From the IMG/VR virus record IMGVR_UViG_3300020219_000012, positions 36,343-100,342 of that record: DNA of 64,000 nucleotides; one strand, given 5' to 3'. Shown in pieces: positions 1,712 through 37,504 of the stretch. The notes beneath the pieces were generated by a model. The model ran no database searches, was not told where the DNA came from, and worked only from the letters and a program-made list of their open reading frames with translations. The DNA is from a virus. The first letter of the stretch is position 1. Every line of letters starts with the position of its first letter. A program made the position numbers and the translations under genes.

Positions 1712-2137
1712 ATGAACTCTCTCAAAGAAGTCTACGCAGGCATCGCGCAGCAGGACCACGTCAAGGTGGCTCAGGCTCGCGACACCCATGTCGAGTCGGC
1801 GGATTACTCCGACGTTGACGCTGGCCTCATGAAGCAGGCCCAGGACTACGACAACGTCGGTCGCATCCTCGCTCACAACGTGTTCAGCGACATGCTGAAG
1901 ACGGCCCTCGACGAGTCGGCGCCCGGCGCCGGCGACGAGGAGAAGGCCAAGGCGCTCGCGGCGCTCCTTGCCGCTGCCAATGGCGAGAAGGCGGCCGAGG
2001 GCGAGGACGAGGACGAGTCCGAGGAGAAGTCCGAGGAAGGCGAGAAGAAGGCGAGCGCCAAGGAGGCCATTCTTCGGCGCATGTCCCAGGATCCGCAGTA
2101 CGTGGCCCACCTCGTGGGCAAGTACTACGGTCGCTGA
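1712..2137 (+). CDS. Head/scaffold protein sharing a motif with 955..1665
   Basis: GAGGA RBS; KQAQDYDNVGRILAHNVFSDMLKTA parallels the motif in the previous gene. Confidence 0.65.
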   Translation: MNSLKEVYAGIAQQDHVKVAQARDTHVESADYSDVDAGLMKQAQDYDNVGRILAHNVFSDMLKTALDESAPGAGDEEKAKALAALLAAANGEKAAEGEDEDESEEKSEEGEKKASAKEAILRRMSQDPQYVAHLVGKYYGR

Positions 2138-2168
2138 TCACCTCCCCGCTCCTCGCTAGGAGGTCCCC

Positions 2169-2597
2169 TTGGGTTTCACACTCGACCAGCTTCTGGAAAC
2201 GACGGGCGTTGGCGGCCTGTCTGGCCGCGATCTCAAAAAGACCGCTGCCAAGCAGGACGGCCGCGAACTGCTCAAGCTCGCGGAGCGATGCCGTCGTGCC
2301 GCCGACGTTGTCGAGGAGGTCCGGCCGATCGTCGATGAGCGCGACCTCGTCGAGAAGACTGCGGCCGTTCAGATCATTCGTCGAGCCATCGAAGAGATTC
2401 GGGAGATCGACGGCGAGGTGATCGAGAAGGTGGCTTCGCCCTCGACGCCTTCGCAGCAGGCGACCTTCATCAAGGCCGCGCTCGAGGCAGGGCACCCGCC
2501 CGAGTCCATCGCCCGCTTCCTCGACAAGGTTCCCGGTGGCGCACCCGCTCGTCCCGCTGAGAAGCGGAAGAAGACAAGCGGCACGATCGTCGGATAG
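2169..2597 (+). CDS. Head-module protein (K-x-A family)
   Basis: GGAGG RBS, TTG start; KTAA, KLAE, EKTAA, EKVAS. Confidence 0.6.
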   Translation: MGFTLDQLLETTGVGGLSGRDLKKTAAKQDGRELLKLAERCRRAADVVEEVRPIVDERDLVEKTAAVQIIRRAIEEIREIDGEVIEKVASPSTPSQQATFIKAALEAGHPPESIARFLDKVPGGAPARPAEKRKKTSGTIVG

Positions 2598-33326: not shown

Positions 33327-34317
33327 GACCTCGCTTTTAGCTCGGCCATCTCTTCTTCTAGGCTGCCAAGCACGGACTGCGTGTACTCGAGCTGCCGCTC
33401 CATCTCACCGAGCTGACTCCTGAGGTCGTTCACCTCTTCTTGCTTTGCAGCTAGCTGCTCGGCGAGCCTGGACCCCTCGAGCTCGTCCACCCGCGAGCGG
33501 AGATGCGCGACCATGCCGATCACGTTGGAGTCGCCGTTACTCGTCTTTCTCATACTCCCTATCGAACTTCGGATGGCACTCGGGACAGGGCGCCGTGCAG
33601 CCGCCGCAGCATTCACTGATGCGGACGGTGCAGCGATCTGCAACGAGGATGCTGCCCTCGCCGCCGCACGTCTCGCACTCCTCGTCGTCGTCCTCGGACG
33701 TCATCTCGGAGTTGTCGAGGTTGGAATCGCTCAGGTCAAGGGGCCCGGGCCGATCCTCGGTCAATGGAGACCTCCACTCTTCTTCTCCGCTTGCGGCAGC
33801 GGCGCGCCGAATAGGTCGAGCTGGTTTGGGTCTGGCCTGTTCTCGTGAGCAGAGACGGCCTTGACGGCAGCGTTGACCGCGAGGATCCAGTCCTCGCTCG
33901 GCTTCTTGCCCTCCGCCTGGCCATGGCGGTAGTGCTTGTAGACCTCCTTCTGGATATGGGACGGGACCATGCGCCAGTGCTTGGGGCACATCAGCTTCTC
34001 GGGCTTGCACTCCCTCTCGCAGTCGCGGGCATAGCAGACATTCTTCACGGCCCGGCGCCTCGTTCCATGGCTGCAAGGAAGAGGGCTTTTTCTTCCGCGA
34101 CGTTCCTTACCGGGGAGGCGTCCCCGAAGATGCGGCTGCGAACGAGGGTGATGGCTCGTTCCTCTTGGGTGACCGGACGCCCGCTTGGTAGGGCGCCGGG
34201 TTCTGACCTGGGTCTCATGGTCTGCATAGTGACAGCGAAGTCTCCTTTTTTGAATCGTACGCCAACAGGTAATCGGACCCCGGTCTGCCAACGGCTCCAT
34301 TCGTTGGGTCGGGAGCA

Positions 34318-34405
34318 TGGCGGAGAGAGGACGAGTCGAACGCCTGACCATTGCGGGCCTCATCCCATTAGCAGCGGGCGCCGGCGCCTCGCCGGTACAC
34401 TCTCC
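34318..34405 (-). tRNA. tRNA-Ser(GCT)
   Basis: Cloverleaf, loop CT-GCT-AA, long variable arm, encoded CCA. Confidence 0.75.
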
Positions 34406-34410
34406 ATTCG

Positions 34411-34496
34411 CGGAAGACGGAGGTCTCGAACCCCAGCCGGTTGCCCGGCCCATCTGATTTCGAATCAGCGGCAGCCCCAAGGCTGCTTCATCTTCC
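34411..34496 (-). tRNA. tRNA-Ser(CGA)
   Basis: CTGA-TTCGAAA-TCAG anticodon arm, long variable arm, G73. Confidence 0.75.
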
Positions 34497-34502
34497 AGTC
34501 GG

Positions 34503-34584
34503 CGGAGAGCGGGTGAGTCGAACACCAACCTTGCGATCGCACCCGCTTCCAACGGGGCCAGGCTCCACAGCCTGCTCACTCTCC
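34503..34584 (-). tRNA. tRNA-Ser(GGA)
   Basis: CCCG-TTGGAAG-CGGG; TTCGA T-loop. Confidence 0.75.
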
Positions 34585-34590
34585 AGGTCG

Positions 34591-34676
34591 CGGAGGGCGG
34601 AGGTAACGATCCCCAGCCGCTTGCGCGGCCCCTCCGGTTTCAAGCCGGTGCCGGGTCCATACCCAGTTCACCCTCC
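34591..34676 (-). tRNA. tRNA-Ser(TGA)
   Basis: CCGG-CTTGAAA-CCGG; atypical T-loop GATCGTTA. Confidence 0.7.
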
Positions 34677-34908
34677 AGGAAATCAGGCGCTGTACAATGC
34701 GCCCGTGGACGACGACATCGATACCGAGAAGATCCCGCGGATCGAGTCGCTGCCCTGCAACATCTGCGGCTTCAACACGTCCAACATCATCCCCGATGTG
34801 AAGTGCCTCGGGTGTATCGAGACCGAGTACCGGCTCCCGCGGTACCTGGCCTCCCGCGAGGGCAGGGCCAGGGTCCGAGACATGATCGCCGCCTACGATG
34901 ACACCGAC

Positions 34909-35448
34909 TCAAGCATCGAGCTCGCCGTTCCAGTAGCAGACATCCCGGACCCAACCTCTCCAGGATTCGGGCATTCCCGTCCTCCACGTCAACGTTAGCC
35001 TGGCGTCCGGCAGCTTCTTGGGCTTCACCGGCGTCGAGAGGAGTCGCATCCTGACCTGCGCCGGAGTGTGGCCACCCTTCTTTTGATTACACGGGAAGCA
35101 GGCGATGACCACGTTCTCCCAGACCGTCGTCCCGCCGTGCGCACGGGGCACGACGTGGTCGTAGGTGATCTCGCTCCGAGGGACCGGAGCATTGCAGTAC
35201 TGACAGCGCCCCTTGTCGCGGGCGTAGACGTTCTCGCGGGAGAACTTGACGACCCTCTTCCTGCCACGAATGGACCGCAGGAAGCGGACGACTGACGGCA
35301 TCTTCAGGCTGAAAGTGACGGACTTGATCGATGAGTCTTCGTACTCCTCGACCACCTCGACCTTGCCCATGAAGAGGAGGGTGATGGCCCGCTGCCAGTG
35401 CACGCGGGCCACGGGTTGGTAGCCTGTATCAAGAACGAGCGTTTCCAT
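34909..35448 (-). CDS. HNH endonuclease inside the tRNA array
   Basis: RDKGRCQYC, TYDHVVPRAHGG, WENVVIACFPCNQKK. Confidence 0.9.
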   Translation of the reverse strand: METLVLDTGYQPVARVHWQRAITLLFMGKVEVVEEYEDSSIKSVTFSLKMPSVVRFLRSIRGRKRVVKFSRENVYARDKGRCQYCNAPVPRSEITYDHVVPRAHGGTTVWENVVIACFPCNQKKGGHTPAQVRMRLLSTPVKPKKLPDARLTLTWRTGMPESWRGWVRDVCYWNGELDA

Positions 35449-35477
35449 AGAGCCATCCTCCTTCCATGCTGATGCGG

Positions 35478-35557
35478 TGCCGGCGGCGAGAGTCGAACTC
35501 ACACGAACGAGTCGGCGGGATTTGAAGCCGCTGTGTCTGCCATTCCACCACGCCGGC
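35478..35557 (-). tRNA. tRNA-Leu(CAA)
   Basis: Leu-type D arm GGAATGGCAGAC; loop TT-CAA-AT; C-C mismatch at 31-39. Confidence 0.7.
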
Positions 35558-35566
35558 AAAGCTTCG

Positions 35567-35647
35567 TGCACGAGGAGAGATTCGAACTCTCACGGTTTTA
35601 CCCGGCGGATCCTAAGTCCGCAGCGTCTACCATTCCGCCACTCGTGC
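35567..35647 (-). tRNA. tRNA-Leu(TAG)
   Basis: GCGGA-CTTAGGA-TCCGC. Confidence 0.85.
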
Positions 35648-35653
35648 AAATCG

Positions 35654-35734
35654 TGTCCAGAAGGGGAGTCGAACCCCTACGGTGTTACCCTCCAGCACCT
35701 CAAGCTGGCGCGTCTGCCATTCCGCCACCTGGAC
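35654..35734 (-). tRNA. tRNA-Leu(GAG)
   Basis: CCAGC-TTGAGGT-GCTGG. Confidence 0.85.
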
Positions 35735-35745
35735 ATTCAGAAATC

Positions 35746-35772
35746 GTACAAGAGGTGGGAATTGAACCCACC
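35746..35772 (-). pseudogene. tRNA 3' fragment (T arm and acceptor 3' strand only)
   Basis: GTGGG-TTCAATT-CCCAC-CTCTTGTA with no 5' half. Confidence 0.55.
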
Positions 35773-35782
35773 GCGGTCGGAG

Positions 35783-35855
35783 TGTGTCCGGCAGGGGTCG
35801 AACCTGCAGTCTCCTCTTTAGGAAAGAGTTGCCCTATCCATTAGGCCACGGACAC
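35783..35855 (-). tRNA. tRNA-Arg(CCT)
   Basis: CTCT-TTCCTAA-AGAG; D arm GCCTAATGGATAGGGC. Confidence 0.85.
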
Positions 35856-35894
35856 GTAGCGCTCAGGCCGACGGGGACAATCTCGGCCAGTTCG

Positions 35895-35967
35895 TGCCAA
35901 GGTCTGGAGTCGAACCAGATTCTTCCGATCTTCAGTCGGACGCTCTGACCACCAGAGCTACCAAGGC
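35895..35967 (-). tRNA. tRNA-Phe(GAA)
   Basis: TCCGA-CTGAAGA-TCGGA; two U-U mismatches in the acceptor stem. Confidence 0.7.
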
Positions 35968-36025
35968 AATCGGGGCACGTGACGGGTACACGCACCATGA
36001 AATTAGGAGCAGGGTGGCCGCATTG

Positions 36026-36099
36026 CGCGCCTCCAGGGAATCGGACCCTGCTCGCACGGTTTAACAGACCGTTGTACTCACCAGAGATACTAGAGGCGC
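36026..36099 (-). tRNA. tRNA-Asn(GTT)
   Basis: ACGGT-CTGTTAA-ACCGT. Confidence 0.75.
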
Positions 36100-36104
36100 A
36101 TTCG

Positions 36105-36177
36105 AGCTACTCCGGGGAGTCGAACCCCGCTCACCGCATTACAAGTGCGGTCGTGCCCCCGCGGCACGTCGAGTAGC
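36105..36177 (-). tRNA. tRNA-Thr(TGT)
   Basis: CCGCA-CTTGTAA-TGCGG; atypical D arm. Confidence 0.75.
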
Positions 36178-36182
36178 AGTCG

Positions 36183-36254
36183 TTCGAGAGGAAGGGGTCG
36201 AACCTTCATTAACGGTTTCAGAGACCGGTGTCCTGCCGATTGGACGACTCTCGA
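36183..36254 (-). tRNA. tRNA-Gln(CTG)
   Basis: CGGT-CTCTGAA-ACCG; U1-A72. Confidence 0.8.
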
Positions 36255-36255
36255 A

Positions 36256-36329
36256 TGGAGCGGGCTGCCGGAATCGAACCGGCATCGACGGGTTGGAAAC
36301 CCGAGGCACTACCAATATACCAAGCCCGC
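36256..36329 (-). tRNA. tRNA-Gly(TCC)
   Basis: CGGG-TTTCCAA-CCCG; U73 and encoded CCA. Confidence 0.85.
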
Positions 36330-36388
36330 AACTGTGACCGCTTGGCCGGCGGTCACCTTCGCTGTCGCTATTCAGTTGTCAGGAGTCG

Positions 36389-36472
36389 TGGGTCTGCTCG
36401 GAGTCGAACCGAGATGGCAACTAGTACAACCGGGTTACAGCCGGCACCGAATCCCTATCGGTCTACAGACCC
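36389..36472 (-). tRNA. tRNA-Tyr(GTA)
   Basis: CCGG-CTGTAAC-CCGG; long variable region. Confidence 0.75.
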
Positions 36473-36500
36473 ATTGAGCCACCACCGGGGCGAGGGGGCG

Positions 36501-36573
36501 TGGCAAGCCGTGGGGGAGTCGAACCCCCTCGTCCGGCTTTGGAGACCGGACCGAAACCGTATCTGTACGACTT
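36501..36573 (-). tRNA. tRNA-Trp(CCA)
   Basis: CCGGT-CTCCAAA-GCCGG; encoded CCA; weak D arm. Confidence 0.7.
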
Positions 36574-36593
36574 ATAATCGAACCAACCTTTCC

Positions 36594-36634
36594 GAAAGAA
36601 GAAAGGCCTGGGAACCTTCTGGTTCGCCCGGCCT
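36594..36634 (-). terminator. Attenuator terminator upstream of the tRNA array
   Basis: AGGCCGGGCGAACC-AGAA-GGTTCCCAGGCCT followed by TTCTTCTTT. Confidence 0.7.
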
Positions 36635-36661
36635 CTAGTCACACCCTGTAGGGAGAGAAAC

Positions 36662-36805
36662 TTAGAGACCGGGCCGCTCCCAATCGAGATTGGTCAGGCG
36701 CTGCTCGACTGAAAACGAGCTATGACCGCCGATGGCGCACGGATACACGGCGGCCGGGGCGGTTGCCCTGGGCGTCGCGGTCGTGGGCTGCATCAACGGT
36801 GACAT
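36662..36805 (-). CDS. Putative 47-aa leader peptide of the tRNA-array attenuator
   Basis: MSPLMQPTTATPRATAPAAVYPCAIGGHSSFSVEQRLTNLDWERPGL; its 3' end is complementary to the terminator 5' arm. Confidence 0.55.
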   Translation of the reverse strand: MSPLMQPTTATPRATAPAAVYPCAIGGHSSFSVEQRLTNLDWERPGL

Positions 36806-36815
36806 CGAGTCTCTA

Positions 36816-36844
36816 CTGTTACGCGCGGCCGCAAATCCTGTCAA
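36816..36844 (-). promoter_or_regulatory. Sigma70-type promoter for the tRNA array
   Basis: TTGACA-17 nt-TAACAG. Confidence 0.55.
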
Positions 36845-37117
36845 CGTCTTTTGAAAACTTTCACGAAGGATTCGGCTTTGCGTCGCCGTGCTCCCAGATC
36901 TCGGAGATCTCAGCGAGCAGGTGGCGCAGCGACGAGGCGGAGTCCATACGGGCCGAGTCGTTTGCCGTGCGCAGGCCGCGGACGCCCACGTTCACCATCG
37001 CCGACATCAGGATCGCCAGGCTGTTGTGGCCAGTGGTGTGCTTCCTGGCGAGGTCCTCCAGATCTTTGAATATGATCCTGAGATCCTCGATCTCTCGCCT
37101 GGCGTCTTCTACGTCAA

Positions 37118-37504
37118 TCATGCTGCACTTCCTTTATTGGTGATGATGCGGAGGCTGATCTTGTTCAGCTCCTGCATGGTCTCGTGCATGTGCTTTGAGC
37201 CGCGGCTCTTGCCATCCCAGTAGACCAGGGCAGCATCAGCGTACTCGGCCATCATGCGATTCCTGCGTCGGCCGGCGCTTTTGCCGTAGAACTTCCAGTC
37301 CGCGGACGTGACCGGAAACGGCTTGACGGGAATGCCGCAATGCTTGGCCCAGTCGACCCCGGCCAGGTCGACGCCGCGGGCCATGCCGGAGACAACCTCG
37401 GTGATCTCGAACTCGGGGTGGACGGCCATGAAGGCTTCGACGTGGGCGCCGATCTCCTTCGTCGACGGATGCAGGTCGCGACTGCCTGCAATGATCAGCT
37501 TCAC
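37118..37504 (-). CDS. YspA/SLOG-family protein
   Basis: IIAGSR, VSGMARGVD, AGRRRNRMMA and WDGKSRGSKHM. Confidence 0.8.
   Translation of the reverse strand: MKLIIAGSRDLHPSTKEIGAHVEAFMAVHPEFEITEVVSGMARGVDLAGVDWAKHCGIPVKPFPVTSADWKFYGKSAGRRRNRMMAEYADAALVYWDGKSRGSKHMHETMQELNKISLRIITNKGSAA

Follow-up and report, generated by a model that had tools for sequence, protein, structure and literature searches.

The attenuators trpL, hisL, leuL and pheL and the multivalent thrL and ilvL (PMC1183508) combine a short promoter-proximal open reading frame (ORF) with an intrinsic terminator and an antiterminator that excludes it; the position of the ribosome picks the fold, termination being favoured when the ribosome stands at the stop codon. 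Here we describe a leader that shares this layout and probably works in the same way, but lies ahead of an array of 15 tRNA genes in a phage. The DNA analysed, called the window below, is a stretch of 64,000 nucleotides (nt), positions 36,343 to 100,342 of the IMG/VR virus record IMGVR_UViG_3300020219_000012; the phage genome is represented by this 100-kb record, which originates from microbial mats and is about 55% complete. Positions are those of the window and all described features of the locus are on the minus strand unless stated otherwise.

Leaders of the trpL/hisL class have runs of codons for one or a few amino acids, whereas the leader of the tRNA array has one or a few codons for nearly all 20. 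It has three pairing segments rather than four, and read-through would therefore be the default without translation. Unlike the trpL/hisL class, it would regulate tRNAs, a product that feeds back on its own sensor, and most of its phage copies start with almost no 5' leader. Inhibitor-sensing attenuators such as Bacillus subtilis bmrCD (PMC4191407) would have in common with the unit that any slowing within the leader ORF turns on the genes, which makes the signal a general one. The genes under their control confer resistance, and completeness of the amino acid set is not known for their leaders, whereas the output of the unit described here would be a set of tRNAs.

T-box riboswitches also sense the state of tRNA by a choice between terminator and antiterminator, but their direct ligand is uncharged tRNA and they work without an ORF, while the leader of the tRNA array has one. 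Neither a T-box specifier loop nor a T-box motif was found in this leader; an Rfam scan of positions 33500-37500 (E ≤ 1) detected no T-box or other family in it, and only tRNA-type and weak, chance-level matches elsewhere. The pyrBI leader encodes a leader peptide of 44 codons and responds to uridine triphosphate (UTP); a ribosome close to the polymerase blocks its terminator. It would share with the unit the reading of the distance between ribosome and RNA polymerase, but the polarity would be opposite and the signal is UTP, not decoding.

Long tRNA gene arrays are non-periodic and horizontally mobile, hold up to about 40 spare tRNA genes and lie beside an HNH endonuclease gene (PMC8421152). 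The long array of Anabaena is silent and becomes induced when translation is impaired (PMC8421152); its control is by the repressor TrcR, which acts on direct repeats at the promoter (PMC10272220), in contrast to the attenuator that we propose for the phage and bacterial unit. In PMC8421152, a term search for leader ORFs, attenuators or terminators came up empty, and full-text literature searches found no publication on leader-peptide or attenuator control of tRNA genes or arrays.

Start signals and alternative folds of the leader

The promoter-like site (TTGACA, 17-nt spacer, TAACAG), the near-leaderless 47-codon ORF, the terminator-like hairpin and the 15 tRNA genes that the first-pass annotation had listed are all present (Table 1), and the arrangement recurs in relatives described further below. 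A TTGAC-type hexamer stands at the matching place in all 12 aligned leaders, and the relatives have TAnnnn at -10, spaced as in the phage. Phage copies were seen to have a strict TTGACA, a -10 element of the TAnnnn form that often lacks the final T, and an A/T-rich stretch upstream. The phage ORF begins with an ATG 10 nt past the -10 hexamer and has no Shine-Dalgarno sequence. Two start layouts are found among the relatives: an ATG 9-15 nt past the -10 hexamer, likewise with no Shine-Dalgarno sequence, or, in one subgroup, a 5' untranslated region of 26-34 nt with GGAG 6-8 nt ahead of the ATG. A short ORF with apparent start signals ahead of tRNA genes is what a leader-peptide attenuator would be expected to have. 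Between ORF and tRNA genes lies a conserved GC-rich hairpin with T runs, which a consensus scan does not call and which we predict to be a terminator; where the phage has a T-rich tail, the relatives have two short T runs.

Folded as RNA, positions 36812-36576 have a minimum energy of -108.7 kcal/mol (z = -5.0 against dinucleotide shuffles). This fold contains the helix proposed in the first-pass annotation, a pairing over 12 bp (one G-U) of the end of the ORF (segment A, 36674-36663) with segment B (36637-36626). The helix and the terminator share nine bases (36634-36626) and are therefore mutually exclusive, as the annotation had claimed. When the 3' arm of the terminator is absent, the A:B hairpin forms in ten of ten leaders with -22 to -33 kcal/mol; when 13 nt from the stop codon are masked, as if a terminating ribosome were there, the terminator forms in all ten with -19 to -26 kcal/mol. 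In these models the leader has an antiterminator fold that excludes the terminator, as attenuators do. The stop codon is in or adjoins the 5' arm of the antiterminator in all members: in most leaders the A:B hairpin takes in the stop codon, and in the rest it begins right past it. Segment B follows the stop codon at a distance of 24-32 nt. Such a geometry would fit a choice between the folds by the position of the ribosome.

The pairings are conserved, with the core pairs of A:B formed in 91% and the lower stem of the terminator in 98.8% of cells in the comparison of 10 relatives. The first-pass annotation advised looking for covariation upstream of other tRNA arrays, and the relatives show one compensated change: a base of the shared arm is G in six and C in four sequences, and its partners in the upstream and in the downstream arm change to match, so that all three pairing segments vary together. 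The upper stem of the terminator and the outer part of A:B vary in sequence by lineage and keep their pairing. In DNA contigs of four runs, the sole population variant within the phage leader is in the 3' arm of the terminator, where the adjacent bases 36610/36609 are swapped and the number of pairs is unchanged. The phage has the weakest terminator of the family (-19 kcal/mol, with a bulged A) and the strongest A:B helix (-32 kcal/mol).

Leader frame, peptide composition and array content

None of the 12 leaders has a stop codon in the leader frame, against totals of 6-15 stops in each of the other five. Leader peptides are only about 25% alike, with pairwise identities of 19-36%, and the initiator methionine is the sole invariant residue. 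Substitutions between three related leaders are spread evenly over codon positions 1/2/3 (17/14/11, 14/13/13 and 18/16/13); together with the low identity this indicates that the amino acid sequence as such is not under selection. The body of the ORF is mildly structured (z between +1.2 and -1.9), and for this reason we make no claim of a pause hairpin within it. A nascent-chain arrest motif, for which a fixed spacing from Trp to the C-terminus would be expected, was considered and rejected: the spacing varies between 2 and 7 residues.

The leader peptide of the phage contains 19 of the 20 amino acids and lacks Lys, as stated in the first-pass annotation. By itself this is mildly unusual (P about 0.02-0.08), as 19 amino acids in 47 residues are reached by about 8% of protein windows and by four of 176 random short ORFs of this genome, the leader itself being one of the four; the significance lies in the relatives. 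Two other arguments of the annotation did not hold. The codons are not unusual for this genome, with a GC content at third codon positions of 0.77-0.79 in the leader and 0.76 in phage genes, and codons readable by the tRNAs of the phage's own array are at chance level (17 of 47, compared with 35% for phage genes; P = 0.5).

Among 28 leader peptides with lengths of 39-56 amino acids, 15 have all 20 amino acids, nine have 19, two have 18, one has 17 and one has 16. At least 19 are thus present in 24 of 28, while the null probability for a peptide to reach 19 is 0.06-0.15 for protein windows; if a complete ancestor drifts and keeps 30-50% of its positions, it is 0.10-0.29, and that of having all 20 is 0.01-0.06. 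Counts of distinct codons are above the null mean in 12 of 12 leaders. No leader has a run of codons for the amino acid of a regulated product. The rare residues Cys, His and Trp occupy different positions in related peptides, a pattern that selection for presence rather than for position would produce. The annotation's proposal of a leader-peptide attenuator that would act as a general sensor is supported by this composition, and by the conservation of frame, start, stop and fold.

All 20 amino acids are found in the leaders of the two fullest arrays, those of the phage record G001 (41 tRNA genes) and of the bacterial genome G059 (37 tRNA genes of 19 types, tandem leaders), and also in the leaders of G003 and G063, whose arrays are seen in part. 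Where an amino acid is absent from a leader, its array has no matching tRNA gene in 10 of 11 cases: Lys in this phage, Tyr and Glu in two tandem leaders on contig 2 of the bacterial genome G006, Cys, His, Ile and Trp on its contig 1, and Lys and Tyr in G046. Val in G004 is the one case that does not fit. Multiplying the hypergeometric chances of the agreeing cases gives about 0.007 by our own arithmetic, which is a hint, not a proof. Leaders of reduced arrays still hold at least nine amino acids that their arrays do not serve.

Relatives of the unit and layout of the locus

Direct searches did not lead to relatives: blastn of the leader against the phage collection gave no match, and exact 22-mers from the leader and from tRNA-Trp had none in IMG/VR. 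Neighbouring proteins were used as anchors; no homologue was found for the 86-amino-acid upstream protein, the helicase has no close kin in IMG/VR, and the SLOG-family protein reached only unrelated phages that have no array. The way in was the HNH endonuclease gene within the array, which has relatives in large phage contigs, the closest of them directly after tRNA-Leu(CAA). One of these phage records, G001, has a 41-tRNA array that starts with tRNA-Trp, and the 15 tRNA genes of the phage are a collinear subset of that order. Upstream of its tRNA-Trp are TTGACT and TAAGGT spaced by 17 nt, an ATG 9 nt later and an ORF of 51 codons, whose stop codon is within a segment that pairs to the 5' arm of a strong terminator. 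The unit is also present in the phage records G003 and G004.

A pattern search that combined a terminator-derived pattern with the anticodon loop of tRNA-Trp yielded six metagenome contigs and one bacterial genome, G006, a 9.1-Mb metagenome-assembled genome titled 'uncultured delta proteobacterium'. A covariance model (R1) was built from the switch region; it finds one copy in each of four phage records, three in G006 and none in two other large phages. Two of the G006 copies stand in tandem ahead of one tRNA array and the third ahead of a second array. The genes flanking them are chromosomal in type (CheA-like, Nuo51-like, SpoIID, TonB), and the unit is therefore not within an obvious prophage. 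Within the order of G006, 18 of 151 genomes have R1 matches at E ≤ 0.001. Of the other 17 genomes with matches, we looked at 11, which have 13 matches between them: seven precede tRNA arrays (G055, G059, G063, G046 and G007), two have the ORF and no tRNA gene downstream (G039 and G043) and four resemble plain terminators. A peptide profile search of the protein collection added seven leader peptides. False positives were L087, L089 and L094 in the pattern scan (L094 is a bacterial elongation factor Tu (tuf-like) gene followed by a terminator and tRNA-Trp), and L125, L129, L131, L135 and L136 with the covariance model.

In most relatives tRNA-Trp is the first gene past the leader. The bacterial arrays are collinear with the phage arrays, as seen in the 37 tRNA genes of G059. 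In the three other phages, the six metagenome contigs and the five bacterial genomes, a collinear long array follows the unit wherever the available downstream sequence is long enough. By the gene counts of G001 and G059 and by the order that the phage keeps in its 15 genes, the arrays are long non-periodic arrays of supernumerary tRNA genes, and the order shared by phages and chromosomes, with an HNH gene as neighbour, shows the horizontal spread that is typical of such arrays. The unit is not phage-specific and is part of a mobile tRNA-array cassette common to large phages and one order of large-genome bacteria.

The HNH gene also follows tRNA-Leu(CAA) in Virus Rctr197k, Myxococcus phage Mx1, several IMG/VR phages and G006, and its placement within the array would fit a homing endonuclease that travels with the array. 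The HNH genes of the phage records G002 and G005 resemble that of the phage; no homologous leader was found where we examined these two records, Virus Rctr197k and Myxococcus phage Mx1. Ahead of an array that starts with tRNA-Ile, G002 has an unrelated ORF of 32 codons with 19 different amino acids (L082 1269-1440, minus strand), enclosed in one long hairpin that pairs GGAGG with the stop codon region and is followed by a T run (z = -2.9); a leader of the same kind may thus have been invented here independently. Tandem complete leaders, each with its own ORF and terminator and about 280-500 nt apart before one array, occur in G006, G063 and G059 (L099 6200-6800, L127 1030-1610 and L128 1400-1890). 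Those of G006 have a promoter each, and the approximately 230 nt between the two match no RNA family. The leaders of G039 (L130) and G043 (L134) have 17 and 18 amino acids, and about 1.5 kb of sequence downstream of them contains no tRNA gene; either these copies are remnants or they control something else. In several relatives the gene upstream of the leader has an end that resembles GGDEF-type cyclases (L078 about 1815-2200, minus strand; L091, L092 and L097), and in G003 the stop codon of this gene overlaps the -10 hexamer of the leader. Two related large phages have genes for tmRNA within their tRNA arrays (L048 2192-2543 and L056 2292-2691).

The tRNA genes of the phage serve 10 amino acids. 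ARAGORN found 11 of the 15 and missed tRNA-Trp and three of the tRNA-Ser genes (TGA, GGA and CGA; 34412-34676), which are present as weak tRNA-Sec-like Rfam matches below the gathering score; the anticodons of these four were read directly from the sequence. The row is interrupted by the HNH gene and by an ORF on the opposite strand, located between the HNH gene and the four tRNA-Ser genes and convergent with the array. This ORF has about 98 codons with two CxxC pairs and no Pfam match and, if real, would split the Ser tRNAs off the transcript controlled by the leader. The second gene upstream of the leader codes for a member of the SLOG (YspA/cpYpsA-related) family, common across phages.

Table 1. 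Coordinates of the leader, the tRNA array and neighbouring genes in the window
Feature	Position	Strand	Basis
Gene of the SLOG family, two upstream of leader	37118-37504	-	
Stop of 86-codon gene upstream of leader	36861	-	sequence reading
-35 element TTGACA	36839-36844	-	read from sequence
-10-like hexamer TAACAG, 17-nt spacer after -35	36816-36821	-	read from sequence
Leader ORF, 47 codons and TAA (36664-36662), ATG at 36805	36662-36805	-	ORF reading
Segment A, antiterminator 5' arm; last four codons and first two bases of stop codon	36663-36674	-	folding
Segment B, antiterminator 3' arm and also terminator 5' arm	36626-36637	-	folding
Terminator-like GC-rich hairpin	36604-36634	-	folding, about -19 kcal/mol with segment A masked
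T-rich tail, 7 T in 10	36594-36603	-	sequence reading
tRNA-Trp (CCA), first gene of the array	36504-36574	-	below-threshold Rfam match and cloverleaf read in sequence
Ten tRNA genes: Tyr, Gly, Gln, Thr, Asn, Phe, Arg, Leu GAG, Leu TAG, Leu CAA	35476-36472	-	ARAGORN
HNH endonuclease gene within array	34909-35448	-	Pfam HNH_5 and HNH
ORF of about 98 codons	34702-34998	+	
Four tRNA-Ser genes (TGA, GGA, CGA, GCT)	34318-34676	-	ARAGORN and Rfam; anticodons read in sequence

Proposed mechanism, alternatives and meaning

We propose that the element is a ribosome-mediated (leader-peptide) transcription attenuator ahead of a mobile long tRNA gene array, and give this a probability of roughly 70%. Sequence elements, conservation, alternative folds and composition bias are direct observations; that the leader is translated, that transcription terminates, which way the switch works and what triggers it physiologically is inferred from them. 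Transcription would start from the TTGACA promoter and the 47-codon leader would be translated from an ATG a few bases off the 5' end of the RNA. A ribosome that keeps pace with RNA polymerase would reach the stop codon and cover segment A, segment B would pair with the downstream arm to form the terminator, and the tRNA genes would stay silent. With the ribosome absent, or delayed upstream of about the last five codons, segment A would be free as segment B emerges; the A:B helix would form first, no terminator would follow and the polymerase would enter the array. Nearly every amino acid is represented by one or a few codons in the leader, so that a delay at any of them could be read. For this reason the unit would gauge the overall decoding capacity rather than one amino acid, and feed back on the supply of tRNAs; the loop would be self-limiting, because its output is tRNAs.

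Several points weigh against this proposal. Neither promoter nor terminator is called by a simple consensus scan; the -10 element has no final T, and the T tract has interruptions. The codon usage of the phage ORF is midway between coding and non-coding frames and does not discriminate (score 0.13; mean 0.47 for real 47-codon windows and -0.30 for open off-frame windows), and translation of an RNA with a leader of 2-9 nt and no Shine-Dalgarno sequence is unproven for the host of the phage. The compensated change in three segments is probably a single evolutionary event. As A:B is modelled to be much stronger than the terminator, the switch of the phage may be biased to 'on'. The phage leader has 19 amino acids and the array serves 10, so the leader does not mirror the array. 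In some of the bacterial copies the number of amino acids is only 16-18, and two of these lack a downstream tRNA gene.

The same architecture could also sense ribosome loading, or the coupling of polymerase and ribosome as it depends on nucleotide pools or alarmones in the manner of pyrBI, with the completeness of the peptides having another cause. If there were no ribosome at all, the antiterminator would form first, meaning that ribosome availability is read too, and the amino acids that leaders retain despite their reduced arrays agree with such a sensor. It would need no complete set of amino acids, however, yet the set is kept while the rare residues move, and absent amino acids track absent tRNA genes; we regard it as unlikely. 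Another alternative is an RNA-only element with an incidental ORF, for example a structured 5' leader that helps to process or stabilise the tRNA precursor, or a small stable RNA such as those of the T4 tRNA cluster. The leader does fold far better than its shuffles and matches no known RNA family. But all 12 leaders have this frame open and stops in the others, ATG and Shine-Dalgarno signals persist, and a composition bias has meaning only if the frame is read, which leaves this explanation very improbable.

If the frame is read, it could encode a small functional protein followed by an ordinary terminator, with the tRNA genes transcribed by polymerase that leaks past it or from some other site. 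In favour of this, the ORF is conserved and peptides of one subgroup share a short C-terminal motif, Asp-Trp-Ser ... Pro-Gly-Pro/Ser. A protein under selection is hard to reconcile with the low identity and with substitutions that show no excess at third positions; the conserved blocks are conserved at the nucleotide level too, and the stop codon lies in or beside a helix that competes with the terminator. Tightly placed tRNA genes add to this, as in most members only about 15-80 nt (about 100 in G001) lie between the terminator and the first tRNA gene and no promoter was seen there. We consider a small protein improbable, if marginally less so than the RNA-only element. Finally, one might think of a chance ORF with chance complementarity in GC-rich intergenic DNA, as neither an ORF of 47 codons nor the presence of 19 of 20 amino acids is more than mildly unusual when the window is taken by itself; the recurrence of the whole architecture in diverged phage and bacterial relatives refutes this for practical purposes.

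Starting from the attenuator, a wider proposal can be made, which we hold tentatively and would stop short of calling probable. The leader could be a product-feedback gauge of the whole tRNA pool, in which each amino acid reports on a tRNA family that is encoded downstream. Promoter, leader, long array and HNH gene would then form a self-regulating spare decoding kit, mobile between bacteria and large phages, silent while decoding is adequate and on when any tRNA becomes limiting, be it by the codon demand of a phage, by tRNA-cleaving defences or by translation poisons. The trigger put forward in the first-pass annotation, host anticodon nucleases, is hypothetical; the unit occurs in bacterial chromosomes and a phage-specific role in counter-defence is therefore not required.

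What purpose the dozens of spare tRNA genes in phages and some bacteria serve, and when they are used, has been debated for decades. If the attenuator is real, a sensor that contains every amino acid would show that the arrays are meant for expression on demand, when decoding lags, and it would provide a mechanism for the published induction of a long tRNA array by translational stress. Leader-peptide attenuation would be widened from the sensing of one amino acid to that of decoding in general, with tRNAs as both output and feedback signal. Each codon of the 47-codon ORF yields a specific prediction, and the leader could also serve as a compact reporter of decoding speed. Phages and bacteria that have the unit probably switch on their spare tRNAs only while protein synthesis is slow.

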